Part shown: one piece after another, positions 1,006-63,303 of the stretch
How positions within the stretch are numbered: position 1 is the first letter of the stretch
Layout: every line of letters begins with the position of its first letter
Source of the DNA: Squalus acanthias
Lineage: Eukaryota
DNA: 64,000 nt
NCBI GenBank assembly: GCA_030390025.1
Contig: CM059432.1
Coordinates: forward strand, 62,560,001 to 62,624,000
Reading direction: 5' to 3'
The notes under the pieces: model-generated
Seen by the model: only the letters and a program-made list of their open reading frames with translations
Told to the model about the DNA's origin: nothing
Databases searched by the model: none
Position numbers and translations under genes: made by a program

Positions 1006-13245
<12,240 letters not shown>

Positions 13246-31200: not shown

Positions 31201-34200
31201 CTTATGTGACTTGGATATGGTGCTCACTAATGCTCTGCACAAGGGTGCCACCTTCTGAGCATCAATGCCAGTGTCTACTTTGGTGAGCATTCCAATTTAC
31301 CAGTCAGTGAAGAGTGCAATAGAATATGGAAGATCTTCAATTGATTTAAGCTTATCAGCGCACTGTTAGAAGCCAAGTACACATTTTTAACATTGTAGAG
31401 GAGATTTTTCATTGCTTTTGTCTGAAACCTTGGTGAAAGACCAGAGTGGTGATAAAGTTGCTTCACTCTGCCCCAACAATGTTTCTTAACTCCAGCTTCA
31501 GAGAGTACCCCTGTTGCACTAATTTGCTTTTACACCCTTCACGTATCCTACTTCAGGCATCCATAAAGCCTCTGATTGCGTTTATCATTTTGGTACCAAA
31601 TAGGGAGTGAGAAATGTGTACAAAAGATCGCCAGCTTTAAAGGAGTTGCGATTTGCTTAGTTTCTCATCATGGAGTTGTATAATGAGTCACAAACCCTTG
31701 GGCTATTTTAATTTTAACAGAAGTATTGGACAATTAAAACTGTCCTTATTGGCTCTGAATGCATGCACTTCAAACCACAGATTTTGTAAAGCTGTCAACT
31801 TGAGAAAGGCTACATAGATGGTTGATGTAGGAAATGGGGTGGGTGGGGGGGGGTACTTATGAAATATACAGACCAGGAAGGTCCCAGGTAGGATACTGAG
31901 TCTGTTAAGTAAGCTGATCTTGGCTTGGGAGGCAGTGGGATGCATAACTAAACTCAGTTTCCCTGGACTAGGGTCGAAAGAAATAATCGAGTTACAATGC
32001 TGATCACACATTCCTTGCTGATGTATGGACACCATGCAAGGACAGGAACAATCTTGGCTCTTGTGGAGAGGGAAACTGAACATTTCAGGTCGGTTCTGAT
32101 GAAATATCATCGACCTGAAGCGTTAACTCTGTTTCTCTCCACAGATGCTGCCTGACCTGAGTATTGTTTTTATTTAGATTTAACAACTTGATTCAGTTTA
32201 TTTTGTTTTTAGGATGAGTTCATAGCACTTTTAATTAATAAATTATCAATTGGTACTTAAACAAGAAACAAAAATGTTGATGCATGTTTGGGTGAGTGAG
32301 CTTTCCTTTGTCAAACTCATTATCAAACACAATTTGACACCGAGCTGCTTAAGGAGAAATTAGAACAGGTGACTCAAAGCTTGGACAAAGGTAGGTTTTA
32401 AGGAGCATCTTAAAAGAGCAGCGGGGGTTTAGGGAGGGAATTCCGAGCTGCTTCATGCGGTGAAAATACATATTGCAGGAATCTATCTGGGATTTTGTGA
32501 AATCCATCCTGAAATTACTTTTGTCCCCTGTAGGCAAGTAATTACTATGTATTACATACACTTGGCACACTGAGTTCATTGCTGGTATGAATTAACAGGA
32601 TGTGATTAAGAAACTGCTGGATTTTCTAGTTGTGGTGATTTGTTATAAATTTTAATTGCGTATCTGAGTACCATATGGATTTGTATATTTTATGTAACAA
32701 TATTGCATAAAGCAAGAATGTTAATGTAATTAAATTGCAATTTCTGTTAAGCCAGTCGTAAACACTTTTTAGTGTAACTTAATTTGCAGATCTAACTGGG
32801 GGAATTTTACATTCCATATTGTGGTGTTTGAAAGGGCATATAGGTATTTTTAACTTGATAGTTCTGGTCTTCTTTTTTTTTGTTTACAAAGTATTTCAGA
32901 TCTTGATGTTGGCTTACGGTTTAACTAACTCATTGTTTTATGTTGGACAGTTCCTCGCAATTTTTGTTTGTTGGAAGAGCTTGAAGAAGGGCAGAAAGGT
33001 GTAGGTGATGGAACTGTGAGCTGGGGCCTCGAGGATGATGAAGATATGACACTCACACGATGGACAGGAATGATTATTGGGCCACCCAGGGTCAGTAAAT
33101 TACCAAGTAATGTCATTATTGAGTTAAAATACTATTTTCCAGATGTTCTGTCCTCATGCTATACCTTGGAGGGAAAATTGTGCTCATGTTTTTCCACTTT
33201 GCTGTAAGGGTTGATTTGCATCAATTTTGATGTAATCAATACTAAAGGGACACTTTCAAAAATAGCGATGAACTCGTGTCCTGCTGTGTAATACCTCACT
33301 GTTTAGTGCTGTGTTGATACCTTAAGCCAGTGGGTGGAAGGCTCGAAGGTAGATGGCTAGTGCTTTATAGCAGTGGTTCTCAAACTATTTTGGTTGAAGG
33401 ACCCCTTTTCAAATCAATTATTAATCACGGACCCCCCCCCCCCCTCTAAATTATAATACTCATACAAAGAAAGTGCTGCATGTAAAGTGTTTAATGTTTT
33501 TAAGGAAACCGGTATTTACTTAGATATCAGTGAGATGGGCGTGCCTGCTTCTCTCTGCAGTCAGTCTATCCTTGGTGGGATGTTTGACTATTTATTTAAA
33601 GCTGTGCCTGCTGTTCATGTTCCTACTTGTTACAATAATTTTAGTACTGTCCTAAAAACTACTGCTCATCTACGGATTTTAATTACAAACCTTTTTTAAA
33701 TGTAATTTGAAATTGACAAAAGCTTCAATTTTAATTCAGTGCTAAAGAAGTGAAAATAAAGAACTCCAGACGATAAATAAAACTCTCAAAAGATACAGCT
33801 GCATGAGTGATTGGGATTGTCTGCTTCACACCCGTCCGCCGACATCCACATCAAACAGACTTGTTCTTTTCGCGATCAGGGCGTTCCCAGCGGGTCAGGA
33901 ACAAGTCCTTGCATTTCCAGCTCTCAGCCAGTCCGCACCCTGCCGTCTCCAGCCAGTGACACGCGAACCCAAACCCCAACACTCCTCTCCCCTCCCCCCC
34001 CAAAAAACAACAGCCGGACAACCTGACAGGCCCCGGGTCTCCAACAGCCCCGCTCCCTCCACCGCGCAACTTTCCCAGCACATAAATCAGTGTTGCCACA
34101 TTCACAGGATTTTAGCTCAATTTGGCCCAGCGGTGATTTCAACTCACCGGCATTAATGATCCAAGATTATCCCACGCAACTGGTTCGGGAAAAGTTCACT

Positions 34201-37200: not shown

Positions 37201-38090
37201 TAATATTGTTAGGATTAAAATTTGGTCCAAAACAATATAGTTTTACACCTTTTTATAGAATGAATAAAATGCAACTCCTTGGTTAAGCCAATTTGTATTC
37301 TTCTATCTGATCAAGTTTTGTCTCTAGTAGGTAAGTGAAATCCTTTTCATGTTAACGTAATTCATAAATTGTACATCTACATTAAGGATTTATAGAGATT
37401 ATTTGAATAGATCCCAGCAGGCAGAAAGTGGTGGACTGTAATTTTGTGTAGTGAGGTTAATTCTTGGGAGTTTTGATAAAGTTCAGCAAAACTAAAATAG
37501 ACTGGATTTATTCAGTTGTATACAAGACTACATTTTCAATGGAAATTGAAATTTGTTTTAGCTAAAAGTCTTGACTATCTGATCAGAAGGTTTCACTTTC
37601 CTTTTTAGAATCCTAATTCAGAAATTTTTGTGTATTCATACAAAATTTGTGTCTCTTTCTCTTCTTCCCCCTTCTTTTCTCCCCCTCTTTCTTTCCCCCC
37701 CCCCCCCCCCCCCCCCCCCCGCCCGCCGCCAACACCTACCACCACTTTCATTGGTTGACCCAGCTACAGAAGTCTGGCAAGCTTTCAGTTTTGTTAAACT
37801 ATTACATTTGACAGCTGTAAAGGATAAATTTAAATTAACTGTGTAGGTTACTATACCTTAAACTGTGGTCTTGTGACTGCTTAGTAATAGCAAAAAAAAC
37901 TGTTTAAAACTACGTGTGCATTTTACACTTTTTTTTCTTGCAGGTGGATTCACGTAGCATACCAATTCTATCAAAGTGGCAAAATTCCTATAGTATTAAG
38001 GCTGTACTTCAAGACCTACGGCGTATGATGACATGCAAAGAGAATGTGAAGATTTCACAGCCCCCCGAAGGACAAACTTACAGCAATTAA
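24745..38090 (+). CDS. UBE2V2: Ubiquitin-conjugating enzyme E2 variant 2 (MMS2/UEV), 4 coding exons, about 142 aa
   Basis: Exons 24745-24760 (ATGACAGGCTGCCGAG|gt, less certain), 32951-33090, 35673-35798, 37944-38090. Translation [52 protein letters not shown]...[32 protein letters not shown]...[10 protein letters not shown]. Position immediately downstream of MCM4, as in other vertebrates, supports V2 rather than V1. Confidence 0.93.
27533..27706 (+). mobile_element. Penelope-like element fragment flanked by a 12-bp TSD, inserted in a CR1 3' remnant
   Basis: TACTTAGAAAGT at 27521-27532 and again at 27707-27718. Internal CTGACGAAGGAGC...TTCCGAAAGCTTG...AATAAATCTGTTGGACTATAACCTGGTGTTG is typical of PLE pseudo-LTRs. 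Confidence 0.75.
27620..27658 (+). ncRNA. Minimal type I hammerhead ribozyme motif
   Basis: Stem I TTAC/GTAA, core CTGACGA, stem II GGAGC/GTTCC with 5-nt loop, GAAA, palindromic AGCT stem III. Confidence 0.65.
30362..31051. mobile_element. PIF/Harbinger-type MITE (690 bp)
   Basis: Perfect 16-bp TIRs GGCCCGGAATTTGCGG / CCGCAAATTCCGGGCC. Inserted in a decayed minus-strand SINE. A second copy lies inverted at 53385-54155. Confidence 0.85.
32062..32175 (+). mobile_element. Penelope-derived fragment with degenerate hammerhead core and inverted partial copy
   Basis: CTGATGAAATATCATCGACCTGAAGCGTTAACTCTGTTTCTCTCCACAG preceded by its inverted counterpart TGTGGAGAGGGAAAC..CATTTCAGGTCG. Confidence 0.6.
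33371..34531. mobile_element. Non-autonomous hAT (Charlie-like) transposon, 1161 bp
   Basis: TIRs CAGTGGTTCTCAAAC / GTTTGAGAATCACTG (one mismatch) and a perfect 8-bp TSD CTTTATAG (33363-33370, 34532-34539). Confidence 0.92.
34640..35300 (-). pseudogene. Decayed Harbinger transposase remnant
   Basis: Minus-strand pieces AASGFL, EQVTA, GQFIAFP and [12 protein letters not shown] occur in the order of the HARBI1-type motifs ATGSFQ, QVT.AL, YI.FP and FxNRKGFHSLN. Confidence 0.45.
36280..36675 (+). mobile_element. Degenerate DeuSINE copy
   Basis: Diverged match to 2172-2641 throughout. Confidence 0.6.
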
Positions 38091-45229: not shown

Positions 45230-45338
45230 TTCAGTGCGATTGTTGCAGACTGTTGTTGCTCAGTTATGCGTTAGCTGCAGCTAACGCATAACTGAGCAAC
45301 AGAACAGTCTGCAACAATCTCCAAGAAAGTGCACTGAA
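45230..45338. repeat. Near-perfect spacer-less palindrome
   Basis: 48-bp perfect palindrome at 45254-45301, plus outer arms 45238-45253/45304-45319 and 45230-45237/45331-45338. Confidence 0.95.
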
Positions 45339-46480: not shown

Positions 46481-48529
46481 ACCAGGACAGGCATAACACA
46501 CTGGACACAAGTACACTCTTCACTCCCTTGCAACACTTGCACAAATGACCCTGCAAAATGCATTCTGATTAAGCAAGTTATAACTGGGCACCTTGCACTA
46601 TGGTTATCCAACTCCCCTAACAGCAATTGCAACAGTATAGGGGCGATTTTGTCAATGGGGGTGCGTTGGCGAGCTTGTCGGGTTTTAGTCCCACCTCCAT
46701 CGACTTCTGGCCAACCCACGCTATTTTCCCTTGATTGACCTTGTTAATCCCGCCCAGCGGGCTTACCAGACCAATTAAGGGGAAGCCGGTTACAGAGAAC
46801 ATCAGCGTATGACATTTCATATGTGAAGCTGTCAAACACTGACATCCTATGTTGTTTGATGAGTCCTTGTATTCAAGACTCATCAAACCTCTTTCTTTTG
46901 CAGAAATTAGATGGTTGTTGCATCGGAGAATGCAGCAGCCATCTGCCATCTCTGCCGGTTAGATGCAAGAGTCTCCGCATCCCCAACTGTTGAAGCCTGC
47001 AGGAAGAAACAAAGGTAAGTAAACATTTTCTATCACTTTCCACTCACCTCACATACTTACCTCTCCACACTTGCACCCATCACTTACCTTCACAGCGCAC
47101 TTTTGCACCCCTCCAACCCCCGCAGACCCACTGCTCGCCTCGGTGACCCTGGCGGGGTTTCCCGACATCAGGAAGCCCGCGCCGCTCCTGGAAAAATGGG
47201 GATTTACAAATTACAGGACCTCTGATAGTGCAGTACTCCCTCAGTAGTGCACTGAAGTGTCAGCCTAGATTATGTTCTTATGTCTCTGGAGTGGGGATTG
47301 ACCTGACTCAAAGGTGAGAGTGCTACCACTGAGCCAAGACTGATATCCCTGGCCTGTGGTGTTAGTGACTGGGTATTAAAATTTGCTTCAACTGGGATGT
47401 GACATTTCCATACTGGCGCAGAAGAGATGGTCTTTTGAAGTTATAACCAAGGTTTATTTTGTAGGGAAGCTTTATTTTGCATATGTCTGTGCTGTCCTCT
47501 GGGTGCTTGAAATAAAAAAGTTTTCCATTCCCCAGCACTTGCCCTAATGAATATAAAGAGGGTATATTTCCTCACTGCAGTGTATTAGCGGTGTATAAAT
47601 GGTCCCAGAATTTTTTTTAAGCAGGAAAATCAGGTGGAAGCCATTTCCACCCAATTTCCGCCATTAAAATGGTTTTCCCAAGTTCTCTCACACTTTTTGA
47701 ACCTTCCAGCAATCTGCCCATTGCGGTGGAAATTGGGTCTTGCCGTGGATGGAAAGAGGGAAAATTTTGCGGGACTAATGTCATGCAACCCAAAGACACC
47801 TGAAAGGCTTTCGACCCAATATTGGAGCGGGCCATTTTAGGTGTTCTTGGCAGCCGCCTAACAATGTGTTAATGAGGGGACTATTAAATAGAAAGAAAAT
47901 AATGTGCACGGAAAATGAAAGAGATCTGGGGATCCTGATTGGCAATAAATTGAAGCTATTGCAACAATGCTGAGTGGCAGTGAGTAAAGCAAATCAGATG
48001 TTGGGATGTATTCAAAGGCCAAAATTGAGTCAAAATAGTCAGGTAATCCTATCACTTTATAAACCATTGGTGCAACGACACTTAGAACACCAGTTTTCCT
48101 CACGTCATGTCTGGGTCTGTTGTAGACTAATTGCTGGAGATTGGTTGCTATGATTAGTCAACAACTCCATTATTATATCATGCAACTACATGGATGGTAG
48201 AAGGCGAACTAGGTAGACCGTGGTCTTTTTTTATCTCGCAATTTCTTTGTTCCTAAGTTACTAGGAGGGCTGTACCTGTGTTGACTCATCATCTCCTGAC
48301 AATAAACAAACCTGGATAAAACAGGTTAATGGAAGCCCTCACCAGCCAGCTCTGTTCATCACAAGAATAAACCAAAGCACATGATCTAGTATCTAAATCA
48401 TCTGCTTTTTTTCTCCTTCAGAACCTTGGTGGTGGTGAGCACTCAGTACTCTTTGCTGTTTCAATCAGGATCTTTCCTTTTTGAACTTTTGAAGCTGCTG
48501 ATTGCTGAGGCTCTGAAAGCTACTGCTAA

Positions 48530-51500
48530 ATGACTTCTCTATTCAAGTCTACCAAGAAATGGAGGGACTCTGAGGAAGATCCCTTGTTACGAGAAGGCAG
48601 ACCTATGATAGGTAAACCGAATGTTCAAAGAAGAAATGGTAGGGATAATTTAATTAGTGTTAAATATACGCAGAAAGATCGAGAGAGTCTCGCATCGCAT
48701 GAGAGTCTGGATTATCTACCTTCTCACAGCGACATTTATAAAAAATGGCTGCGAGAAATCCCTTACAGGTAATGAGCACAATTCCTATCTATTATTTAAA
48801 TATTTTAATTTCAACAGTGGCAGATTTATTTGTTAAGTATGTAAATATGCTAAGAAACAAATCTATTCAAGGGCTCATTTTAGGGTGCTACCTTTGGCCT
48901 TAATGTCTTGGACTAGGAGCACATAAATCAACTAGTGTTCTTGCACCGAATGCTGTGAGTCTGTAGGACAGTATATGTGTGTCTTGTATGGACATTGACT
49001 GAGGACAGGATTGGGCTCAGATGGGATGTCTTTCACAGTGGAATAGCATACCAACATTTACTGCTTCGTCTCACACATGAAGAATGGGCACTTGGCCAAG
49101 GTTCTGGAGGGTGCCCAGTGTACATGGGGCTGTATCCCAACAGAAGTCAGTGCCTTCAGAAAAGGAAAGGGGAAATGATTGGAGTGTGGGGGGGGGGGGT
49201 AATTTTTCTTTCCAAAGATTTTTAATTTTATTCAGAATATAATGGCTTTAAGTACAAATATTTAGCAAAGGAATAATGTGGGGGTGTGATGATTGCAGTT
49301 TGTAATCAATCAGTCTCAGTAAGCAAGGATTTTCCCTGTGGTTATTCAGCTGCCTCGCAAAATTGCTGGAGGGAGTTCACGCAACAGATTTATGAGATAT
49401 TGTTAGGCACCAGTACAAAGTTTTTATATTCCGCTACTTTTGAGGCAGTGTGTGTGTGAGGGTAGGTGAGGGGTTGGCAGGGGGCTTATGGAGTTGATAT
49501 GTCTTTATTGGCTAGTTTACCATTATGTTCAGTACCATCACAATTAAACTACCAACATACAGACAGATAGGGAATAATTCGAGGGTTGGTTGTTTGCTGA
49601 CTGATGGTAGTAGCTGCATTATACGGTATAACATTTACAGTATGATAACAACCAGATGTCTTTCAAATTGCCAAATCTGTTGGATTGTTAATTCTACTTA
49701 GTAGTTAGTTCTAATTTTTTTAATTGTTGTTTCTCCCCATCTATCAGTGGCTATTTCTGGTTCCCTTTGCATGTGGGAAAAGCTGCTGCAAATCTCTTTG
49801 GATTTAAACAGAACAGGTTGCAGCTTTAATTTGCCCATTTTACTGTTGGCCAGAAAGTCCAATCTTGTTGACAATCATTAAACTATATTATTATGAGTCA
49901 TTTATCTTGCATTCTTATATGTTTTGTTTTAAGCAAGACGTTTGTTAAATGTGCAATCTAAGCTTTCTGTAAAGAACTGATAAAGCCGCAGTGGTCTACA
50001 GGATTATAGTCATCTTGGTTTCTGGGCAGCAGAAATTGAACCCTTTCAAAATTAAACAGCTATGATTGTAAGAGTTACTAAATGGAGTGACAGTTTTTAT
50101 TGCAAGATAAGTTGCATAATATTTAATGAATTCAAGTGTGAATATGTGGTCCAGGGACAGTTCTCTGTAACCAGTTATGCTTAACAGGCTTTACTGTTTA
50201 TTCTCAGAAATACTGTTCAGTAACCCAAATCTCAATTAGTTGTGTGATCTATCCTGTATCTGTCTTCAGGTGCAGTTTGCTCTCTCTAGGTGCAATTTTA
50301 ACCCAGCCCAGCTGGCAGAAACAGGGTGGGTGGTGGTTAAAATCGTGTCTGGAGTCTCTTCACACTTACCCTGTCCCGCCCCCCCCCCCCCCCCCCCAAT
50401 TTTAACTCACCAGATTTTGCATTCGGGAAAGGTGACCGCTCCGGGCAAGCAGGGACCTCTTTAAAATCTCAAAGTCGTGCTCCAATGGCATCATATCTGC
50501 CCTCATTGCATTTTAACTCCAAATTGCGGATGCGCCACACAGTCTCAGACCTGCCAGTAAAACTTGTACCTGGATTTTAGCTTGGAGGCGCATTCATGTG
50601 GGGATCCTGTTTTCAGGTCGGGAAACCAGGAAGTACGGGTTAACCGAACTGTCTTTAAATATTTTTCTGTAGGTTTCCTGCCCACAGCCAGCCTGATTGA
50701 CAGGCTGGAGGCCTGGCGGGTGGGAAATCCTACAGCACAAGGCTGTAGCCGAGCTGGGCTGAGAGCAGGTAGGTATAGTGGGGAGATGGGCGAGATCATG
50801 GGGAGTGTCCGATCGCGCGGGGGGGGGGGGGGGTTCCAATTGCTGGGGGTTTTACAAACATGGGGGTGGGGAAAATGGTGGTCAAGGGTCAGGGGGCAGA
50901 TGGTGGTCGGGGGGAGCAGACAGATCCCGGGCCTAGGGTATACTGGGTAGCTTGTTGGGCCCGGAAGAAACACTCCTGCTCCTCCTAGCTCACAAGCAGT
51001 GCTGTAATGCATTTACCTCAGATTCAGCTCTTCTCGCCTCCTTTCACCTGCCAGGTTTCCCGAGGGCTGGGAAACCCGGCCGCCTGTGGTTAAAAATTGA
51101 ATCACAGTTAATATGAAGACACACTGCCTCATTAAAATATTTATAGACGCGACTGCTGCCAACGAACCTGAAGTGTTCTGTGCATGCGCGCTTCCGGTTT
51201 GTCACGGGAGCTTCCTCGTTAAAAAATGTTTTAAAAAGCCGGGAAGGGAACAGGCTGGTTAAAAAAAAACGGAAGAGAGCGGGCTCATGAGAAAAAGCCG
51301 GGAATGGAGCGGCCTGGTTAAAAAAAGCCGTGATGGGAGCGGGCTTGTGAGAAAAAGCCAGGAATGGAGCGGGGTGGTTAAAAAAAGCGGGGAATGGAGC
51401 GGGCTGATTAAAAAAAGCTGGAATGGAGTGGGCTCGTTAAAAAAATCCGGGAACGGAGCGGGCTGGTTAAAAAAAGCTGGGATGGGAGCGGCTCGTTTAA

Positions 51501-54500
51501 AAATAGCTGGGAAGGGAGTGGGCTCGTTTAAAAAAAGCCGGGACGGGAGCGGGCACATTATCGTGCTCATTTTAAAAAAGTAGAGACATCATGCTTCCGG
51601 TTGTTGGAGTGCGCAGTACGCTTCTGCGCAGCTTCCGGTCATTGGCAGCAGTCACTCCGAATATTTATTCGCCTCCTGCGAGCAATTGGTCGCCCGCCCC
51701 TTGTCCCGCCTCCGTTAAAACTGAAAGTGGGAGGGTTCGAGATGGGTTGGGTTCCTGTTTCAGATTTTTTGAAATTTAACCTCTGACTCAACCCCAGCCC
51801 ACCTGTTTTTGGGAGTTAAGATTCAGCCCCTGGTGTCTGAGAGCCTCTGAAGTACAAAAAAGGGGCTCTCAACTGCAGCTCACTGGATTGCAGGATCTTT
51901 TGCTGTCTGGTTTGCCAGGAGAGTTTCTAGCTTCCAGGTCGCTGCTTCTACACTCTTTTTCCCTTACAACCCTCAGTCAGCTTTCTCTCCTTATTGGCCC
52001 AGAACTTGCTGGAAAAATAACAGCGAGTTCATGGTGCATGCCGTGTTTAGTGTGTAAAAAAACAGCAATTTGTGGCAAGGAAGAGATACAGCGTAAGCTG
52101 CAAATCGCCACAAATATCTGGGCAATTTGTGCTGTTCCGCCGTTAGCCTCACACAAATTGTAGCTCACTATCAACCTCCCCATAAGTGTCAAGAAATTGC
52201 TTGATTTGTGCCGTAAATATGAATTAAACTTGGCACAGAAAGTTAGGGCTGCTATTTCACAGTGTAAGGACCCTGTTAATGGGGTGATTTATGGTCCTGA
52301 TATGCCACTCAACCTTGGAGGTCCAGAAAGGGAACAATTGAAACTGTGGAGTCTCACTCCTGCAGGTAGCAAATTTTTCCGAGAGGTTTTTTAAATTTAT
52401 ATTTTTAAATTTATTTTCTTACTTTTCCTTTCGGTCTCTTTTTTCCCTCTCTCTTAATCCAATCAATTTTCTCTTCTCCTTATTTCTCTTTCTGTATCTA
52501 ATTTGACTCTAATTCACCCTTCTGCATCGTTTGCTCTGTTTCTTTCTCTATCCTTAAATATCATTGGTTAAGGAGATAGACGATTGGTCCCGTTGTTCAC
52601 CAAGGTCCCAGATGCCCCGTTGACCGTGTTATCAATTTGCACTGCCAGAAATTTGCGGTGCAACAATAATTGGAGCTGAAGGGTGAGGAAGAAATCCAGC
52701 TCATGGTGCATGTCTGAAAATGTGCCGCTCCAGCAAATTCTGGACCATTATGTTTTTCATTTTTCCATTATTGCTACTTTATTCTGGATGGACCAAGACT
52801 TGGAGGAGGAACAGTAGCCACAACAACCATCACCACCAGCAGCTGGGCCTCTCTGAAGACAGGAGGTACAGGCTAAGAGTCACCTTCTTGGACCTATCTG
52901 AGGAGCAGTGTAAAAGAAGGCTGCGCTTCTCCAGGCAGACTGTCGCAGAATTCTGTAGTCTCCTGGGACATGATATGCTGTCTGTTGGATCGGGGGATAT
53001 GTTTTGTCAGTGGCCCTCAAAGTCACCACAGCCCTGAATTTCTTCGCCACTGGATCCTTTCAGGCTGCTGTAGGAGACTTCAGCAGCATCTCGCAGTTCA
53101 TAGCTGCATTAAGCAGGTGACCAATGCCCTCTTCGCCAGGGAGGAGCAATACATCACCTTCCCCACTGACCTTAGCAGTCAACAGGAGAGATCTCTGGGC
53201 TTTGCAGCAGTGGCTGGCTTCCCTTGTGTGCAGGGTATCATTGATTTCACACATGTTGCCGTTAGGACACCATTTAGACAACTTCTATATCAATTACATT
53301 CTGACAATGCAGACTCAGAAGTTGCTTTTAAACCACTCTGCAGACCAAAGTGCCAAATGTGATTAATTTAATACAAAACATAATGGCCTGGAATTTGCAG
53401 TGGGTAATAACAGCGAACGAACAGCGTTCACTGTTATTACTCCTTTGAAACTGACCGCAACTTCAGTATTTAGTGCATGCGCATCCTAACGTGGGAATCC
53501 TGAAGTTGTTATTCACTGCTCCGACACTGCTCCGACACTTGTGCTGTGGCAACCCCCCCCCAACCGCCATAGCCGGCAATCAGTATAATAAGGGAAATCA
53601 GTGAAACTGATGAAAACTTTGGGTTTTCTGCGGTAATAATGCTGTTAAATACCCCATTAAAAGTTAGACCTTTTTAAATTAGGTGTAACTGGGGTTTTAA
53701 CAGTGTATTGACTGCTAAACAAATATTATGGCCCTGAAAAACTAATTTTGATTTTGTGGAGTGTCAAATTTATCCATTTTAAGAAAAATTAACATTTTTA
53801 AGAAACTAAATTTTTTTTAGTTTTTTAAAAAAGTTTGTTCATCTTTATTTCAGGTTTATCTTTTCCCAATGTGAGAGTCCCAATCTTTGTTTTGCTCTCT
53901 ATAACATTTTAATAAAGTTAGAATAAAAGGAACTTAATCACTTCCTAGTTCCCGGTCTATGAGAATTCTGCATTGTCATTGGCTGCTTAGACAGCTTGTT
54001 GACGTTAGGGATTCCTCATTAACTTACACTGATTTCAACTGAAGGTCGGAAAAGCCGAACTTCTTGCTACAGAGATTGCGAGATCTTTGTGGGGAGCTTA
54101 CTTCGGGGCCAGCAGCAAACGCCTTTGCTTCACTGCTGACCGCAAATTCCGGGCCATTGAATGACTTCTATTCATATCTCACCCAAGTGATCAACTGACA
54201 GTGTATTTCTTTAAAGAAGATTTCCTAACTCAGTTACTCTTATGAGGTGCTTCCCTCTTGGCCTGAGCAGAGCTGGTGGAAGGCTTCTGTTGCTTAAGTG
54301 GGGAATCTTGAGATGCTCGGGACCATTGACTTATGGGCGCTCAAGTCTGTGAGGGCCCAGCTGCAGACTGCAGCACCTTGGCTGCTGCCAGGGTGGTCTG
54401 GACAGACTGCAGCACTGCGGCTGCTGCCAGGGTGGTCTGGGCAGACTGCAGCCCCTCGGCTGCTGCCAGGGTGGTCTGGGCAGACTGCAGCCCCTCGGCT

Positions 54501-57500
54501 GCTGCCAGGGTGGTCTGGACAGACTGCGGCTGCTGCCAGGGTGGTCTGGGCAGACTGCAGCACTACGGCTGCTGCCAGGGTGGTCTGGGCAGACTGTAGC
54601 CCCTCGGCTGCTGCCAGGGTGGTCTGGACAGACTGCGGCTGCTGCCAGGGTGGTCTGGGCAGACTGCAGCACTGCGGCTGCTGCCAGGGTGGTCTGGGCA
54701 GACTGCAGCCCCTCGGCTGCTGCCAGGGTGGTCTGGTCCAGCTGACTTGCTGGCACTATGGTGGGTATTGATTGAGGAGAGACGAATGTGCTGACAACTT
54801 GAGAGAAGCCAACACGTCCCACTCCCACCGCCCCAGCGCCACTCCTGTGATCTACGGGAAAGCAGACTGCAGAAGATGGCTGACCCCTTAAAGTCCCAAT
54901 TCAATCCACCAATCTCTTCATTGTGAAGCCTAGAGTCTGCATTGCAACCGTTTGAGCTTCTATCGAAGCTGCAAAGTGTGAAAACATGAACTCCTGTTGT
55001 GAGAGCCTGGCTGTACCATCCCTGGAGATGGCCACATTCTCCAAGGTAGACTGCAGAGTGGTGATGCCATGTGAGATGACACCACACAGGCTAGAAATGG
55101 ACTCCTCCACACTCTGTCATAGTAGTGAAACTGCTTGGCACAGCTTCCAATAGCTTGTACAGCTGTTTGTGTGAGGCCAGCAGTTTTCTTCTCATGTCTG
55201 GGTCTATGAAGTCCTCATCTTTGTCCACTGGGAGAGGGCTGCACTCTTCGGCGAGCTCTTGCCTGGGCTGTCCCTGGCACCATACCTGCTACTGTCCACT
55301 GGTGCTGTGTGTTTCACCACTTGCAGACCCCTCTAGATCACCATCTTTTATTTTTATTCGTTCATGGGATCTGGGCGTCACTGGCAAGGTCAGCATTCAT
55401 TGCCCATCCCTAATTGCCCTTGAGAAGGTGGTGGTGAGCTGTCTTCTTGAACCGCTGCAGTCCGTGTGGTGAAGGTACTCCCACAGTGCTGTTAGGGAGG
55501 GAGTTCCAGGATTTTGACCCAGTGACGATGAAAGAACGGCGATATATTTCCAAGTCAGGATGGTGTGTGACTTGGAGGGGAACTTGGAGGTGGTGGTGTT
55601 CCCATGCGCCTGCTGCCCTTGTCCTTCTAGGTGGTAGAGGTCATGGGTTTGGGAGGTGCTGCCGAAGAAGCCTTGGCAAGCTGCTGCTGTGCATCTTGTA
55701 GATGGTACATACTGTAGCCACGGTACGCCGGTGGTGGAGGGAGTGAATGTTTAAGGTGGTGGATGGGGTGTCAATCAAGTGGGCTGCTTTGTCCTGGATG
55801 GTGTCGAGCTTCTTGAATGTTGCTGGAGCTGCACTCATCCAGGCAAGTGGAGAGTATTCCATTACACTCCTTACTTGTGCCTTGTAGATGGTGGAAAGGC
55901 TTTTGGGAGTCAGGAGGTGAGACACTTGCCACAGAATACCTAGCCTCTGACCTGCTCTTGTTGCCACAGTATTTATGTGGTTGGTCCAGTTAAGTTTCTG
56001 GTCAATGGTGACCCCCAGGATGTTGCTGGTGGGGGATTCAGCGATGGTAATGCCGTTGAGTGTCAAGGGGCGGTGGTTAGACTCTTGCTTGTTGGAGAAA
56101 GTAATTGCCCGACACTTCTGTGGCGCGAATGTTACCTGCCACTTATCAACCCAAGCCTGAATGTTGTCCAGGTCTTGTTGCCTGTGGGCATGGACTGCTT
56201 CAATTATGCTTCATTATCTGAGGAGTTGCGAATGGCACTGAACATTGGGCAGTCATCAGTGAACATCCCCATTTCTGACCTTATGTTGGAGGGAAGGTCA
56301 TTGATGAAGCAGCTGAAGATGGTTGGGCCTAGGACATTGCCCTGAGGAACTCCTGCAACGATGTCCTGGGGCTGTGATGATTGACCTTCAATCACCACAA
56401 CCACCTTCCTTTGTGCTAGGTATGACTCCAGCCAGTGGAGAGTTCCCCCCCCCCCCCCCCGATTCCCATTGACTTTAGTTTTACAAGGGCTTCTTGATGC
56501 CACACTCAGTCAAATGCTGCCTTGATGTCAAGGGCAGTCACTCCCACCTCACCTCTGGAATTCAGCTCCTTTGTCCATGTTTGGACCATCTACCTCACGC
56601 AGAGTGGCAAAAAGAGAAAGAGAGCAGTGAAGTGGGATGTGAGCATATTAAAGATGGTAAGACTATAATGGATAATATGGAAATAGCCGCCTTCTTAAAT
56701 GAGTACTTTATATCTGTTTTCACAGTGTAGGAAAAGGATATAATACCAACAGTACAAGGAAACCGTAAAATACATCAAGGGGAGGAGCTTAATGAATTTA
56801 ATATAAGTTTAAAAATGGTAATGGAGAATAAAAGGGGACTTAAGATAATTAAATCTCCAGGCCAATGGTTTTCACCCCAGGGTATTGAAAGAAATAGGTA
56901 AGGAAATTGAAGATGCCTTAGTCATAATTTTTCAAAGCTATTTAAATTCACTAATTGTGCCTTTGGATTGGAAAATTGAAAATGCCATTCCATTATTTAA
57001 GAAGGAAGGGAGGAAGAAACCAGGTAACTTCAGACCTGTCAGTTGAGCATTAATTGTGAGCAAGTTACTGGAATCTATCATCAGAGACAGAGTGACGCTG
57101 CACTTGGACAAGTATGAGTTGATCAAAGAGAGTGAGCATGGATTTTTGAAGTGTAGGTCATGTCTGACTTTTTTGAGGAAGTCAGTAGCATAGTGAATAT
57201 GGGAGTGTCTATGGATGTTGTCTATATGGACTTCCAGAGGCATTTGATAAGGTTTTGCACAAGATATTATTAGCAAAAATGGAAGCGCACAGAATTGGAG
57301 GTAACTTTATGACATGGGCCAGTAATTGGTTGGAAGCTTGGAGACAGAGAGTAGGGATAAAGAGAATGTTCTCTAATTGGCAGGATGTGACAAGAGGTAT
57401 TCCCCAGATGTGTACTGGAGCCTCAGCTTTTCCCCATATATATTAATGACTTAGATGAAGGAATAGAGAGTTATATATTCAAGTTTGTAGATGAAACTAA

Positions 57501-60500
57501 GTTAGGAGGCACAGTAAGTTGTGTTGATGGAAGCAGAAAGTCACAAAGGAACATAGACAGACTAATTGAGTGGGCAAAACTATGGCAGATGGAGTTCAAT
57601 GTGGTGAACTGTGAGGTCATCCACTTTGGATCTGAGAAAGACAAATCAGAATATTTTATTAATGGTGAGAGACTAGGAACAGTGGGGGAGCAAAGGGTTT
57701 TGGGTGTCCATGTATACAAATCACTAAAAGCTAGTGTACAGGTACAAAAAGTAATCAAAAAAGCTAATGTTGTCATTTATATCAAGAGGATTGGAATTCA
57801 GAAGTGAGGAATAGAAGATTCAGTTGTCCAGAGACTTGCTTAGACCCCATCTGGAGAACTGCGTTCAGTTTTGGGCACCAAACCTCAGGAACGATATATT
57901 GGCCTTGGCGGAAGTACAGCACAGATTTCACAAGAATGATGCCAGGGCTTAAAGGGTTAAATTATGAAAGCAGGTTGCATAAACTTAGCTTGTATTCCCT
58001 TGAGTTTAGAAGGTTGAGGGGTGATCTAACCAAGGTGTTAAAATGATAAAAAGATTCAATAGAGTACATAAAGACAACCTATTTCCTCTGATGGGGGAAT
58101 CCAGAGCAAGATGGCATACTCTTAAAATTAGATCTAATCAATTTAGGAGAGAAATCACAAAACACTTTTTCTTACAAAGGGTAGTTGAAATCTGAAACTT
58201 GCTCCCCCAAAAGGCTGTGGATGCTGGGTCAATTAAAACTTTCAAAACTGAGATTGATAGATTTTTGTTAGGTAAGGGTATCAAGGGATATGGAGCAAAG
58301 GTGGGTAAATGGAGTTGAGGTGCAGATCAGCAATGATCGAATTAAATGTTGAAACAGCCTTGAGGAGCTGAATGGCCTAACCTGTTCCTGTTCCTACTTG
58401 AGTTATTAGGAGTGGCACTCATGCTGCCTGCTCTCTTCCAGGTCAGACTGGGACTACTGGTTTATGATGGGACTTATTGGAATAGCAGTCGGGATCCTGG
58501 GATTTTTTATACATCAGGCCATTGACACTCTTATCAAATTGAAATGGAAGCTTGTTCTGCATTATGTACAGGTAAGGAACAGAAACAAAATAATTAGTGT
58601 ATGTGAACTTGCTTTAGAATTTCTTCTCAGTTTTCTATTAATTGAAATTGGTTTCAATTTCTTAAATTATGTGGGGGTAAATTGGATTCGGCCCGAAAAC
58701 GGGTTCGGGGATTGTGATCTGCCCACGCCCGTTCAAAGTGGTGTAGGCAGCATGCAAAATTTGTGCTGCCTGCTCATTATAATGATTGGAGTGCTGAGCT
58801 CAGCACTAAACACGCTGCTGGTTGGCTTAGCGCTCAAGAGGGGGGCCAATATTGGGTGCAGTCTACTGGCCAATAAAATTTCGCCTAGGCTCTCTGCACT
58901 TCTTAAGGGGAGGTTCTTTATTGCAGAAACACCTCATTGTCACTGTGGATGCAGCCATGTCACAACATGGAAGAGAAAGGGCACGGCCAATGTTCCCTTT
59001 AATTTCTTTTTGGGTGTGCGACCCCTTTAACGTGCCGCGCAGCTCATTCAAATTTCCGCAGGTGCGCAGTTTTTCCATTTAAAAGCCGGTGAGCCGGCTG
59101 TGTGGGACCTGCAGACAGCCACGCGGCTGCGCGGCCCCACAGCTTAAAGGGAACATTGGGCACGTCAGTGCTCAGTGGGGGTACACAGAAGAAGATAGGT
59201 TCTTTACCCATCGGGGGGCAAGAGGCCTTCCAGACAGAATGCCAGAAGGCAGTGGGAAGAGATAGCCCAAGCCGTCAGTGCCATTAGTGTTGCCCCCAGG
59301 ACCTGGATCCAGCACTGCAAGAAGTTTAATGTCCTCACACGAGTGGTCAAGGTGAGTGAATGCAACTTCAAATGCCATATCCCACCAACTGCACCACTAG
59401 CCTCACACACTGCACAATGCACCACACCCCCAGCACTCGCCTACCAACAATCTCTAGCAATCACAACTCATACCTCACAATCATAGCTTCACCTCACCCT
59501 CACACACTTACCACTGCTGCAAGCCTCACACCCACATCTCACACCTTGCACACAATGTCAGCTATTCAACCATGACAGGCACATCACCCAAACACATTGC
59601 ACCACACTCACTGACACACTTCCCTTTCTCTTGCAGGCCAAGACGGCTCACAACCGCCGTGAGCAGCAGCACACAGGCGGGGGTGAAGCACATCTGCAGA
59701 ACCTTACTGTGCTGGAGGACACTGTGCTGGAGATAATTGGAGGGGCCTGTCACTGATGCTGTGGCGAGGTTGAAAGTATTGCAGATGACAGTATGTTCAT
59801 TCCTAATCCTTCTCACATCCCACTTCCCCCTCATCGCACAATCTCTTCTCACTTACAAGCTACTGATAGTGTAAGTATGCACATCTTGCTTCCACCCCCT
59901 CCCCTCACCACAACCCGACCCATGTGCCTTTCTCCTTCCAGATATCCAAGAATTGCCAGCAGCCCAGCCTATCCCTGATGTAGCAGAGGAGGAGAATGAT
60001 GGAGAAGAAGAGGCACCGTCACTCGATTTGACACTCCCAGGCACCAGCTCAGAAAATGGCACAGCGCGAACTTTAGAGGGTAGTATAGAGGCGGGACCTG
60101 CACATGGTGAGTCACCGGGCACAAATGGACTGCAACCAAGGCCAAGGGGAAAGGGTAGCTCGGGTGCCAGCTCCCCAGAGGGGGAGTTCTCACACAAGTT
60201 CTGCTGCACAGGACTTAGATGAGGACTTTGATGGGACGGCCTTCAGAAGAAGGGTGATGGGCACGCACACAGAAATGCTTGGTGCAATGGCAGGCCTGTC
60301 AGAGAGCCTCTTGTCAGTGTCAAGGAGCATGGAGGAGTCTGGCTCCAACAATGCATGGGGCTTTGCGCAGAGCTTGGAGCCCATGATTTCCAGGATAGAA
60401 GTGATGGTCAACTTCATTCGAACACTTGTGGACCCAACCATGATGCTGGGTGTGATAGGCGATGTCGTAGCTTCCATTGCAGCACAAGCAGAAGCGACGG

Positions 60501-63303
60501 AGTGCTGTAATGGAAGATCAAACTGCTCTCATGCAGGCTCAGCTTGCTGCCACACAAGCTCAGACCGATGCCATCGTGGCTGGGTTTACAAGTGTGGAAA
60601 GGGGCTTGCAGGGTCTCACAGCAGTCCAGCAATCTATCTTCCAACAGATAGCTAGGAATGCTGAGGCACCGCCCAGGGGGAGTGGCAGTGGCTCCATGGA
60701 GTAAGAACGTGCTGTCCTTTCTCAGGATGACAGCATTCGTACTCCCACCACTGCCACTCTGCCAGTGCCCTTGCTGCTATCTGTCAGCCAGCCAGCCCAG
60801 ACTGCTGCCGCCCATGCCAAGGTGGTGCAGTCTATAGCCAGGCCTTCTAGGCCCAACGCTACTCGAGGTCATCCTGCAAGGCCATCTGGACTGTCCCCCA
60901 CAGAAAGTCAGCAGCCTTCCACCAGCTATGCTGCAGCTACTGGGGTAGCACTGTATAGGAGCACTAGAATAGGCAAAGGAACATAAAAGACAGACATAAA
61001 GGGAATGCACAAGGGTGATTAGTTGACTTTATTATATGGTATTGGATTGAATCCTTTAAATATTATGTTTGGAATGTTTGTTTTGTGGTGGCTCTCATTT
61101 CAACTTTGTGCCCAAGAGGACGTTGTGATGTTCTGTGACAGAGAGGAAGTGTTGAGCAACGGGGATCTGTGGTGTAATTCCTTGAAACTGGAGTCTGTTG
61201 AGGCGTTCACGGACAGCCCGTCAGGAACGGGGCTCTGCTGCCTGCCTCCTCCCTTCCTCCTCCTCTTCTTCCTCCTGAGGTGGTCGCAGAACCCGTGGTG
61301 GCAAGGGCTGCATCTTCATGATGACCAAGTTGTGGAGGATGCAGCAGACCACCCGCTCCGGCATGCACTGGAGGGCTCCTCCCGAGTGGTCAAGGCAGCG
61401 GAACCGTTGCTTTCGCACCCCAATTGTCTGCTCGATGACATTCCTGGTGGCAGCATGGCTGTTATTATATGACTGCTGGCCACGAGTGGTGGAGTTGCTG
61501 AGGGGAGTCATCAGCCAGGTGTCGAGCCCTTGTCTCCGAGCAGCCACCCTTGGGTTCGACGTGGTGGCTGGAAGATTGCTGGCACACCAGACTGGCACAG
61601 GATGAAGGCAGCATGACTGCTGCCAGAGAGCAGGCATTCACCATCATGATGTGCTGGGCATGGTCGCACTACAGCACATTAAGTGAGTGGTAGCCTTTGT
61701 GGTTGCGGAACATCTCAGGATTGATATGTGGCCCCTGCAAAGCCACGTGTGTGCTGTCGATGGTGCCCTGCACCATGGGGCAGCCCGATATCCTGCCAAA
61801 ACCATATGCACGCTCCTCCTCTTCTATCTGTTCAGAGAGAACACAATGAAGTCCCTTCTCCTGGAGTACAGAGCCTCAGTGGCCTCCCGGATGCAGCGAT
61901 GGACGGCGAACTGGGAGATGTTAGCTATGTCACCTGCTCCAGACTGGAAGGAGCCGGTGACGAAAAAATTCAGGGCCACAGTCAACTTGAGGGCCACTGG
62001 CAGCGCCATCGTTGCCCTGCCTCTGAGGCTGCAGGTATCATTCCAAGAGGTGGCAGCATTCTGTGACCATCTCCTTGGTGAAGCGGAGCCTCTGAATACA
62101 TTGCTCCTGGCTTAAGTGCAGGTAGGAGAAGTGCTCTCGGAAGACCCTTGGTGGGTAAGACCACTTGCTGAGAGCCCTCCTGCCCCTCCTCCTCCTCCCT
62201 CTGCGAGCAGCTTGTCTTCTTCTTTGCTGCCACTGCTCCATCTCCCTGTCATGCTCCAGCACAAGGGGGTCTGCAAGTCGAGCCCCCATAACTGGGAGCA
62301 AATGGTCTGGTCAGAACCCTTGAATTCAGAAGCAAGGCTTTCTCCACTTGCAGTACCACTCCCTGTCACCTCACCAACTTTAAATAACTGTAGAAAGCTC
62401 CAAACAGTTCCACAAACTTACACAGAGCCAATAGAAAGCAGAAAGTAAGTCACCTGCAAGTTGTTGATGATCCCTTTAAATACCACTGGTGGGGGGGTTC
62501 CCTCGTGCAGCTGAATACTTGTTCAGCTGTGTGTGCTTTGGAGAGGGCGTGCAGTCGAACGGCAACGTCCAAAATAGCAGGTCGTGCATCAAATCAGCAT
62601 TGCACGCTGATTGATGTCACGATCTGCCTCATTAGCATTCTTCTGGCAAACATCCACACTACCGACCTGCCCAAAATGGCGACTGCTGTGGTCGCCATTT
62701 TTCTGCTGAAACCAGCCTTAAATGTCGGCATGAAGAGGGGGAATTTCACGGCCTGTAACTATAAAACTGGAAAATGCACAATGTCTTCTTTTGAATTTAA
62801 TTTTATAGTTAAAGTAACTTTCCTGTTTATAAACTATTTCTCCCTAAAACACCATATTTTTGTTTTTATATATAAGGAATGTATTTATTGTTTCCCTTCT
62901 GTACTCTTCTCATGTCATGCACCATTCCTGGTCGAGGGCAGATAGATGGGCTGCTGTCAGTTGATAAGAGTTATATAGTGGCTGGTGTGTCTCTTGCTCT
63001 TTTCCCCCTCGTTGGGCAGACACCCCCGACCTCTGTTTAGTGCCATGATGAAATAGCCGAGACTGGTAAGTCACAGTGGAGAGTTGTCAGCAAACCTGTG
63101 TTCTTGATGGTGTGTTGACTTGGAGATGTGCCAGCCCTTTCCACAAGATCAATAAAAAATTCAATGACTGATATCTAATAGAATAACTTCAAATTTGTGT
63201 TTTTTTTTTCTACTATTTACAGAATAGTCAGTTTTTCCTCACCTGGATCTGTATAGTTGGAATTGGAGTGACGATGGTCACACTGTCCTCTGGAGTGGTG
63301 CTG
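48530..63303 (+). CDS. CLC-family chloride channel/Cl-/H+ exchanger, CLC-6/7-clade-like, first three coding exons (partial; continues beyond the window)
   Basis: Exons 48530-48768, 58442-58571 and 63223-63303 join in phase: MTSLFKS...ESLASHESLDYLPSHSDIYKKWLREIPYR|SDWDYWFMMGLIGIAVGILGFFIHQAIDTLIKLKWKLVLHYVQ|NSQFFLTWICIVGIGVTMVTLSSGVVL. The ESLDY motif, helix-B W..M.LIG..VG..G and the following hydrophobic helix are characteristic of CLC-6/7-type proteins. An acceptor at 48420-48421 suggests an upstream non-coding exon. Confidence 0.85.
50289..51830. mobile_element. Putative Harbinger-type non-autonomous element(s) carrying a 30-bp tandem array
   Basis: Ends GGTGCAATTTTAAC / GTTAAGATTCAGCCCC are partially inverted; GC-rich body; TSD unclear. 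Confidence 0.5.
51233..51555. repeat. Minisatellite, about 11 x 30 bp, consensus AAAAAAGCCGGGAATGGAGCGGGCTGGTTA
   Basis: Units counted directly in the sequence. Confidence 0.92.
51996..52746. mobile_element. Harbinger-type MITE (751 bp) with ATT TSD
   Basis: TIRs GGCCCAGAACTTGCTGGA / TCCAGCAAATTCTGGACC (16/18), flanked by ATT on both sides. Confidence 0.8.
52850..53275 (+). pseudogene. Harbinger (HARBI1-type) transposase N-terminal fragment
   Basis: FLDLSEEQCKRRLRFSRQTVAEFC, VALKVTTALNFFATGSFQ and HSCIKQVTNALF...GFAAVAGFPCVQGIIDFTHVA read across frameshifts. Confidence 0.85.
53385..54155. mobile_element. Harbinger-type MITE, inverted paralog of 30362-31051
   Basis: TIRs GGCCTGGAATTTGCAG / CCGCAAATTCCGGGCC; interior is the reverse complement of the 30 kb copy. 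Confidence 0.85.
54380..54740. repeat. Minisatellite of 39-bp and 31-bp units (GGCTGCTGCCAGGGTGGTCTGGRCAGACTGC[AGCMCYKC]), about 10 units
   Basis: Units read directly: 39,39,39,31,39,39,31,39,39,partial. Confidence 0.95.
54780..55330 (-). pseudogene. Harbinger Myb/SANT gene C-terminal remnant
   Basis: Minus-strand DEDFIDPDMRRKLLASHKQLYKLLEAVPSSFTTMTE/VEESISS parallels DEDFDGTAFRRRVMGTHTEMLGAMAGLSESLLSVSRSMEESGS in the element at 60 kb. Confidence 0.65.
55347..56590 (-). mobile_element. Non-LTR retrotransposon of the CR1/L2 group (distinct from the vertebrate-type CR1s here), 3' RT part
   Basis: Minus ORFs contain GVPQGNVLGPTIFSCFINDLP, MFTDD and ILGVTIDQKLNW...IYKAQVRSVMEYSPLAW. Confidence 0.9.
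56640..58396 (+). mobile_element. Older CR1 LINE, RT and 3' end
   Basis: VYMDFQRHLIR-like segment, KFVDETKLGG, WQMEFNVVNCEVIHFG, LYSLEFRRLRGDL and a CR1 tail. Confidence 0.9.
59180..60986 (+). pseudogene. Harbinger Myb/SANT (trihelix) DNA-binding protein gene, 3 exons, frameshifted
   Basis: QWEEIAQAVSAISVAPRTWIQHCKKFNVLTRVVK|gt at 59351; exon 59637-59790 AKTAHNRREQQHTGGG; exon from 59942 with acidic and coiled-coil regions; stops and frameshifts present. Confidence 0.85.
61170..62301 (-). pseudogene. Harbinger DDE transposase (HARBI1-like), frameshifted
   Basis: LSQEQCIQRLRFTKE, VALKLTVALNFFVTGSFQ, VQGTIDSTHVA, FRNHKGYHSLNV, WLMTP and HAATRNVIEQTIGVRKQRFRCLD...CCILHN. Confidence 0.92.

Follow-up and report, generated by a model that had tools for sequence, protein, structure and literature searches.

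Nine mammalian CLC proteins in three groups are described in the excerpted text of PMC7940362, and only nine human CLCs are named in that of PMC9333335; work on the family is organized around this set. The described systems closest to the gene studied here include CLC-7, the lysosomal 2Cl−/H+ exchanger, and CLC-6, a late-endosomal exchanger whose adenosine triphosphate (ATP)-binding residues are S50, H630, R833 and H834 (PMC10575590, excerpt). Here, we analyzed a stretch of 64,000 nucleotides (nt) from Squalus acanthias (assembly GCA_030390025.1, contig CM059432.1, positions 62,560,001 to 62,624,000, forward strand), hereafter the window, in which the 5′ end of a further CLC gene is found. As judged from its orthologs and their trees, this gene almost certainly belongs to a separate, ancient third branch on the CLC-6/7 side of the family and is neither CLC-6 nor CLC-7.

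Three stretches of the window are real coding exons of this gene. They splice in frame (phases 2, 0 and 0) into 150 residues with no stop, with GT at all three donors and a pyrimidine tract with CAG at both internal acceptors. A tblastn search of the window with the full-length Mustelus ortholog matched exactly these three stretches, so the exon set is not due to chance; within the window the search gave no fourth CLC exon and nothing else below an E value of 0.17. The exons and their motifs, with the tblastn E values, are as follows.

48530..48768, + strand: coding exon 1 (239 nt); cytosolic N-terminus, acidic dileucine, ESLDY and start of helix A; 85% identical to Mustelus residues 1–80, E 7e-38
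58442..58571, + strand: coding exon 2 (130 nt); helix B (model helix 82–123); 86% identical to Mustelus, E 3e-20
63223..63303, + strand: coding exon 3 (81 nt); helix C (model helix 127–152); E 6e-9
48572..48589, + strand: EEDPLL, residues 15–20; candidate sorting signal of the [DE]xxxL[LI] type
48701..48715, + strand: ESLDY, residues 58–62; S59, D61 and Y62 align with S50, D52 and Y53 of CLC-6 (ATP site, interface of the N-terminus and CBS domains)

The window holds helices A–C only. The gene continues past its end, and the remaining roughly 680 residues, with all of the pore motifs, are known from orthologs alone. None of 31 highly conserved sites is changed in the window's exons, and this, together with the few changes in partial models from other sharks (see below), makes the shark gene look constrained. 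The three exons are best explained as the 5′ portion of a functional CLC gene. A first-pass annotation of the window had proposed three in-phase exons with clean splice sites and no stops, separated by about 14 kilobases (kb) of introns with transposable-element remains; the exon join was confirmed, and the two introns add up to 14,324 nt. When single exons were queried against solved structures, exon 1 gave chance matches only, and exon 2 reached chicken CLC-7 at an E value of 7.8, below seven designed repeat proteins.

A protein search with exon 1 returned six longer proteins at 70–92% identity, five of them from named sharks and rays. These shark and ray orthologs carry the automatic NCBI names ‘chloride channel protein A-, B- or C-like’ (D-like elsewhere). 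The 150 residues of the window are 83% identical to the Mustelus protein (P0002, 827 residues, ‘chloride channel protein C-like’), compared with 20% for fish CLC-7 and 24% for fish CLC-6. At full length, the Mustelus protein shares 47–48% identity with amphioxus and sea-anemone members and 31–33% with CLC-7 and CLC-6. It matches the Pfam families Voltage_CLC (E 2e-69) and CBS (E 6e-11, one CBS stretch passing), and its AlphaFold model (predicted local distance difference test score 85, predicted template-modeling score 0.88) shows a CLC fold with two CBS domains. The best folds for this model in Foldseek are CLC-7, AtCLCa and CLC-6, at 26–29% identity. Bit scores of the Mustelus protein were 342, 332 and 284 within the CLC-6/7/AtCLCa group, versus 175 for CLC-3 and 157 for CLC-2. 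Both this difference in score and the N-terminal ESLDY place the protein on the CLC-6/7/plant side of the family.

Searching with the Mustelus protein gave 341 near-length matches, of which 120 were listed. These 120 rows, 86 treated as vertebrate and 34 as invertebrate, underlie the residue counts out of 120, 86 and 34 given below; five of them were assigned from a tree or from identity, and a species may be represented by more than one isoform.

Two trees were calculated, a FastTree tree of 153 rows (representatives below 600 residues left out, two of them replaced by named members of their clusters) and an IQ-TREE tree calculated under LG+G4 from 50 rows chosen by hand, and their topologies are concordant. 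In the IQ-TREE tree, a branch supported at 100/100 sets off the vertebrate and invertebrate members, and adding a choanoflagellate, an algal cluster and two euglenids yields a larger group, also at 100/100. The CLC-6, CLC-7 and plant CLC rows stand apart at 98/95, with Dictyostelium ClcA between. Approximately unbiased (AU) tests rejected placing the vertebrate members with CLC-6 (p 1e-67) or with CLC-7 (p 5e-110), and the union of all three groups in an animal-only clade was rejected as well (p 1.7e-8). CLC-6 is joined by a protein of one sponge, while a protein of another sponge falls in this branch; thus the split predates animals, whatever the root. On these trees, the branch appears older than animals and is neither shark-specific nor a vertebrate duplicate. 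The trees thus agree with the first-pass annotation's proposal of an additional CLC on the CLC-6/7/plant side that is no ortholog of CLCN6 or CLCN7.

The branch is spread much more widely than that annotation supposed. Among the matches listed, vertebrate holders are sharks, rays, bichir, caecilians, salamanders, frogs including Xenopus tropicalis, turtles, alligator, lizards, snakes and non-passerine birds. Invertebrate holders are amphioxus, tunicates, hemichordates, echinoderms, molluscs, brachiopods, nemerteans, a spider, cnidarians and a sponge; non-animal members come from a choanoflagellate, algae and euglenozoans. Among the matches listed (120 of 341 near-length, 120 of 146 shorter), none comes from a named mammal or teleost, and no representative from clustering at 50% nests with bichir in the FastTree tree. 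These absences refer to listed annotated proteins, with 8,000 candidates scored per search, many short rows unnamed and some members hidden within clusters. Lamprey, chimaera, gar, coelacanth and lungfish are likewise not among the matches listed, and absence from such a list is not proven loss. The branch is apparently missing in mammals, as far as the matches listed show, as had been proposed. Its retention, however, is not particular to this lineage: bichir, amphibians and reptiles have it, as do many birds and the majority of the marine invertebrate phyla listed, and the branch itself is older than animals.

We then considered the pore, numbering residues by the Mustelus protein. The gating glutamate (E202) and the proton glutamate (E269), both proposed for inspection in the first-pass annotation, lie outside the window like all the pore positions; in the orthologs each is present in 118 of 120 rows (84/86 vertebrate and 34/34 invertebrate in both cases). 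The central serine (S159) is kept in 110 of 120 rows (76/86 vertebrate, 34/34 invertebrate), with cysteine in an alligator and phenylalanine or leucine in two birds among the replacements. The central tyrosine (Y609) is found in 86 of 120 rows, the remainder having phenylalanine. All eight chondrichthyan rows keep both serine and tyrosine. The outer phenylalanine is retained in 85 of 86 vertebrate rows.

The central phenylalanine, F514 of CLC-7, occurs in none of the 120 rows. Its position, which we take to correspond to V319 of the fluoride carrier CLC-F, holds valine in 86/86 vertebrate rows and valine or leucine in 34/34 invertebrate rows, whereas 32/32 rows on the CLC-6/7/plant side keep phenylalanine. 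The aromatic slide made of the outer and central phenylalanines (PMC7274781, excerpt) is incomplete in this branch. Two prolines are further departures: one replaces the lysine before the gating glutamate in 109 of 120 rows, and the other replaces the glycine before the central serine in 77 of 86 vertebrate rows. Loss of the central ring loosens Cl−/H+ coupling in CLC-ec1, where the F357A mutation made transport about ninefold slower and moved coupling to about 4.3:1, and F357L was similar (PMC7274781, excerpt). Background on S107, Y445, F357 and E203 is given in the excerpted text of PMC12873427.

The ATP-site residues of CLC-6 are kept in the Mustelus protein as S59, H670, R785 and H786, and since S59 stands at the position of CLC-6 S50, the ESLDY of exon 1 would be part of the ATP site. 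An acidic dileucine is found at the homologous place in all seven chondrichthyan N-termini, in 6/6 turtles and 12/13 squamates, and also in salamanders; shuffled sequences yield such a motif 6.8% of the time. In birds the homologous site reads EEEMLM, and their ten strict dileucine matches are mostly at another place. The endolysosomal location suggested earlier from EEDPLL is plausible but unproven for the shark protein, and the motif's conservation does not extend to frogs, bichir or invertebrates as groups.

With these residues in mind, we lean toward reading the protein, on the strength of its orthologs, as an anion/H+ exchanger of vesicles that binds ATP and has loosened coupling and altered gating. 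It would work as a dimer in the membranes of endosomes, lysosomes or other vesicles, the shark protein being directed to vesicles by its N-terminal acidic dileucine, and would bind ATP between ESLDY and the CBS domains. Anions would be exchanged for protons through the gating glutamate E202 and the proton glutamate E269, and the central site would hold S159 and Y609. Compared with the 2:1 exchange of CLC-7, that of this protein is probably slower and more loosely coupled, with different gating, because the central phenylalanine is valine and prolines precede both the central serine and the gating glutamate.

A number of points weigh against this reading or the placement behind it. The trees lack a CLC-1/2/3 outgroup, the IQ-TREE tree is unrooted, and LG+G4 without a mixture model is prone to pull between long branches. 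In the larger tree, 14 of the 97 rows that fall on the side of this branch keep the central phenylalanine, and this residue is only about 76% conserved across CLCs in general (PMC7274781, excerpt). Its effect is taken from a point mutant in another protein, and a branch that has long lived with valine may have compensated. The filter itself varies, the central serine being tyrosine in 6/6 full-length turtles and the central tyrosine being phenylalanine in 31/31 frog rows. The acidic dileucine stands at its place in only 3/30 frogs and 1/34 invertebrates and is absent in bichir, and gene models are partial or split in three sharks. GPEGP was rejected as a unique badge of the branch, as it is also found in Dictyostelium ClcA and plant CLC-e/f. 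An effect of the lysine-to-proline change on selectivity was likewise unsupported, since the excerpted text of PMC9726985 does not list R147, the position of this change, with the Sext amides.

The rival that survives best, although we think it unlikely, keeps the separate branch and sees in it an ordinary, tight 2Cl−/H+ vesicular exchanger that is largely redundant with CLC-6 and CLC-7, other changes having offset the lost ring. Sharks and invertebrates do keep both glutamates, the serine, the tyrosine and the outer phenylalanine; the central phenylalanine is imperfectly conserved even across CLCs, as noted; and redundancy would account for the repeated loss of the branch. The strict absence of an aromatic residue at the central position in all vertebrate and invertebrate rows, set against its invariance on the CLC-6/7 side, is hard to square with this view, as is the maintenance of the gene alongside CLC-6 and CLC-7 since before sponges.

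Slightly less probable again is a channel-like protein or a carrier of something other than chloride (nitrate, iodide, bromide, bicarbonate or an organic anion); it might sit at the surface of an ion-transporting epithelium, with a tuning that differs by lineage. Three changes at pore motifs would fit such a protein, as would lineage-wide swaps at the central site (serine to tyrosine in turtles, to cysteine in the alligator, to phenylalanine or leucine in two birds; tyrosine to phenylalanine in frogs), loss of the sorting motif in frogs and invertebrates, and the contrast between sea-turtle copies, which seem broken, and whole freshwater-turtle copies. The proton glutamate, the mark of an exchanger, is nevertheless near-universal in the branch. 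Plant-type nitrate transport was rejected by its sequence mark, as proline at the central serine position is found in 0 of 120 rows. CLC-F has methionine for the central serine and an extra glutamate beside the central site (PMC10962343, excerpt). Fluoride/H+ antiport of this type was also rejected by these marks: the serine is kept, and no glutamate stands just before the central phenylalanine position in the 120 rows.

The copy in this genome could also be a pseudogene in which the first three exons have stayed clean, which we regard as improbable. The branch is indeed often lost or decaying. The two passerine rows (P0365 and P0384) are short and decayed, with 11/71 and 14/48 conserved sites changed. 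Rows from six genera of sea turtles are all pieces (P0229, P0318, P0283, P0287, P0288, P0330, P0342 and P0353); the eight tested have 2–6 changes in 45–126 sites, and aspartate replaces the gating glutamate in three of these genera. In two whole freshwater-turtle proteins 1–2 of 317 conserved sites are changed, and loss of the gene in sea turtles with the move to the sea is possible. Gene loss seems to be under way in several bird lines; the bird rows in possible decay also include a gannet and a bustard (P0049 and P0071). In the gannet model, 21 of 317 conserved sites are changed, both glutamates among them, and the bustard model is flagged as low quality. Among sharks, the models of Pristiophorus, Heptranchias and Stegostoma are partial or split, and the downstream exons of the Squalus gene lie beyond the window. 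Against decay in sharks, these partial models have 1/140, 1/157, 3/105 and 3/96 sites changed, the eight chondrichthyan rows among the matches listed are 769–827 residues long, and the Squalus exons themselves are open, cleanly spliced and unchanged at 0/31 sites.

A diverged true ortholog of CLCN6 or CLCN7 is already refuted, subject to the tree model used: its best matches among solved structures are CLC-7 and CLC-6, a ‘chloride transport protein 6-like’ cluster tops Atlas searches (which gave only generic CLC clusters) and some members bear the JGI label ‘chloride channel 7’, but identity to both is far below that to the amphioxus and sea-anemone members, AU tests reject both groupings, and rays own separate clc-6 and clc-7, listed as separate entries in a stingray kidney table in which this gene does not appear (PMC9396271, excerpt).

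Outside the coding exons, one feature of the gene and two neighbors could be placed, together with the two introns.

48422..48529, + strand: probable 5′ untranslated portion of coding exon 1, inferred from a pyrimidine tract and CAG acceptor at 48420–48421 and an in-frame stop directly before the ATG
48769..58441, + strand: CLC intron 1 (9,673 nt); minisatellites and remains of long interspersed elements
58572..63222, + strand: CLC intron 2 (4,651 nt); mostly a decayed Harbinger-type element
9766..9951, + strand: partial MCM4 exon, matching human MCM4 best (E 8.5e-35)
37944..38090, + strand: last exon of UBE2V2, the upstream neighbor of the CLC gene

No ATG lies between the acceptor at 48420–48421 and the CLC start at 48530. 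A strong acceptor 108 nt before the start codon with no ATG in between suggests that the CLC gene has a non-coding first exon upstream of 48420. A contig of 3,331 nt from a related species aligns with the window from 48436 and covers exon 1, and whole reading frames of the branch are found on contigs of 2.7–3.0 kb, in one ray-like and one frog-like record; these sizes fit spliced messenger RNA. Identical contig pieces were rejected as evidence of expression, as they also span intron sequence and one crosses the first donor. No exon–exon joint is among the 15 contig joints listed, there being 459 further.

The MCM4–UBE2V2 neighborhood named in the first-pass annotation holds, both genes lying upstream of the CLC gene and on the same strand. 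The neighbor matches UBE2V2 at 71 bits and UBE2V1 at 63.6 bits, and its stop is 10,440 nt from the CLC start. A turkey gene model named UBE2V2 (P0323) fuses the ortholog of this CLC with UBE2V2. The model points to the same neighbor in turkey, but the CLC pieces of the model are out of order and only nearness is shown; the fusion is probably an assembly error. No CLC gene is known beside human UBE2V2. At 32929–33110, a motif of the shark UBE2V2 exon has cysteine where turkey has arginine, a difference that could reflect a change in the lineage, an allele or a base error. A near-perfect palindrome of about 80 nt, located between UBE2V2 and the CLC gene at 45238–45319, was seen by eye and not in the repeat-finder output; it is perhaps a small transposon remnant.

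Reverse-transcriptase and Harbinger-type remains were identified in the introns by Pfam (RVT_1, DDE_Tnp_4 and a weak Myb_DNA-bind_5, in 3 of 13 intron frames tested). Intron 1 has minisatellites at 51233–51554 and 54363–54736, with a 30-nt unit repeated 10.8 times and a 39-nt unit repeated 10 times, and a very high-copy repeat at 55018–56628, where summed contig depth reaches about 100,000 and the − strand carries a reverse-transcriptase frame. A Harbinger-related piece at 53005–53099 lies inside 29-nt inverted arms (52733–52761 and 53370–53398). The decayed Harbinger-type element of intron 2, at 59199–62310, carries a Myb/SANT-like frame on the + strand and a DDE_Tnp_4 frame on the − strand.

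The first-pass annotation called the gene poorly characterized. A full-text search of main texts in a library with few subscription journals found no paper describing the branch; the gene itself is already on record in NCBI under automatic names. Members of the branch are found in Xenopus tropicalis and galliform birds, from which a vertebrate CLC that predates animals can be cloned and recorded. In these proteins, changes that biophysicists made only as point mutants (central phenylalanine to valine, serine to tyrosine or cysteine, tyrosine to phenylalanine) are fixed natural states, so that the determinants of coupling and anion choice in CLCs can be tested directly on this branch. That it has been lost repeatedly may hint at a physiological role now absent from mammals. 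We also entertain, tentatively and with less than even confidence, a broader reading: an unrecognized pre-animal eukaryotic CLC subfamily without the central phenylalanine would be a naturally loose exchanger or non-chloride carrier, its central site retuned in turtles, crocodilians and frogs, and its independent loss in mammals, teleosts, songbirds and sea turtles would be why CLC research missed it.

Finally, we compared the branch with the systems that resemble it most. With CLC-7 it shares the fold (Foldseek E 1.8e-40), ESLDY, both glutamates, the central serine and tyrosine and the outer phenylalanine, as well as a CBS ATP site ending in TRKDL and a candidate N-terminal sorting motif (PMC7940362, excerpt). 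It differs from CLC-7 in standing on a separate branch at 31.5% identity, in valine for F514, in the prolines before the gating glutamate (for lysine) and the central serine (for glycine), and in a longer luminal loop with three N-glycosylation sequons. CLC-6 has the same fold, the same ATP-site residues (S50, H630, R833 and H834) and the same interface residues (D52, Y53 and R828). At 33% identity, however, its D54 is leucine and its H851 is lysine in this branch, the pore differs as from CLC-7, and the gene lies at another locus. Arabidopsis AtCLCa, the vacuolar nitrate/H+ exchanger, matches in fold (E 8.2e-40) in an alignment that begins at ESLDY; the nitrate-type proline at the central serine is absent here, and the plant row falls on the CLC-6/7 side. 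Dictyostelium ClcA (Q54AX6) shares GPEGP at 34.9% identity, yet it retains the central phenylalanine and lies outside the 100/100 clade. The NCBI models called ‘chloride channel protein C-like’ (also A-, B- and D-like) are orthologs under an automatic name only, one derived from the names of Dictyostelium ClcB, ClcC and ClcD.
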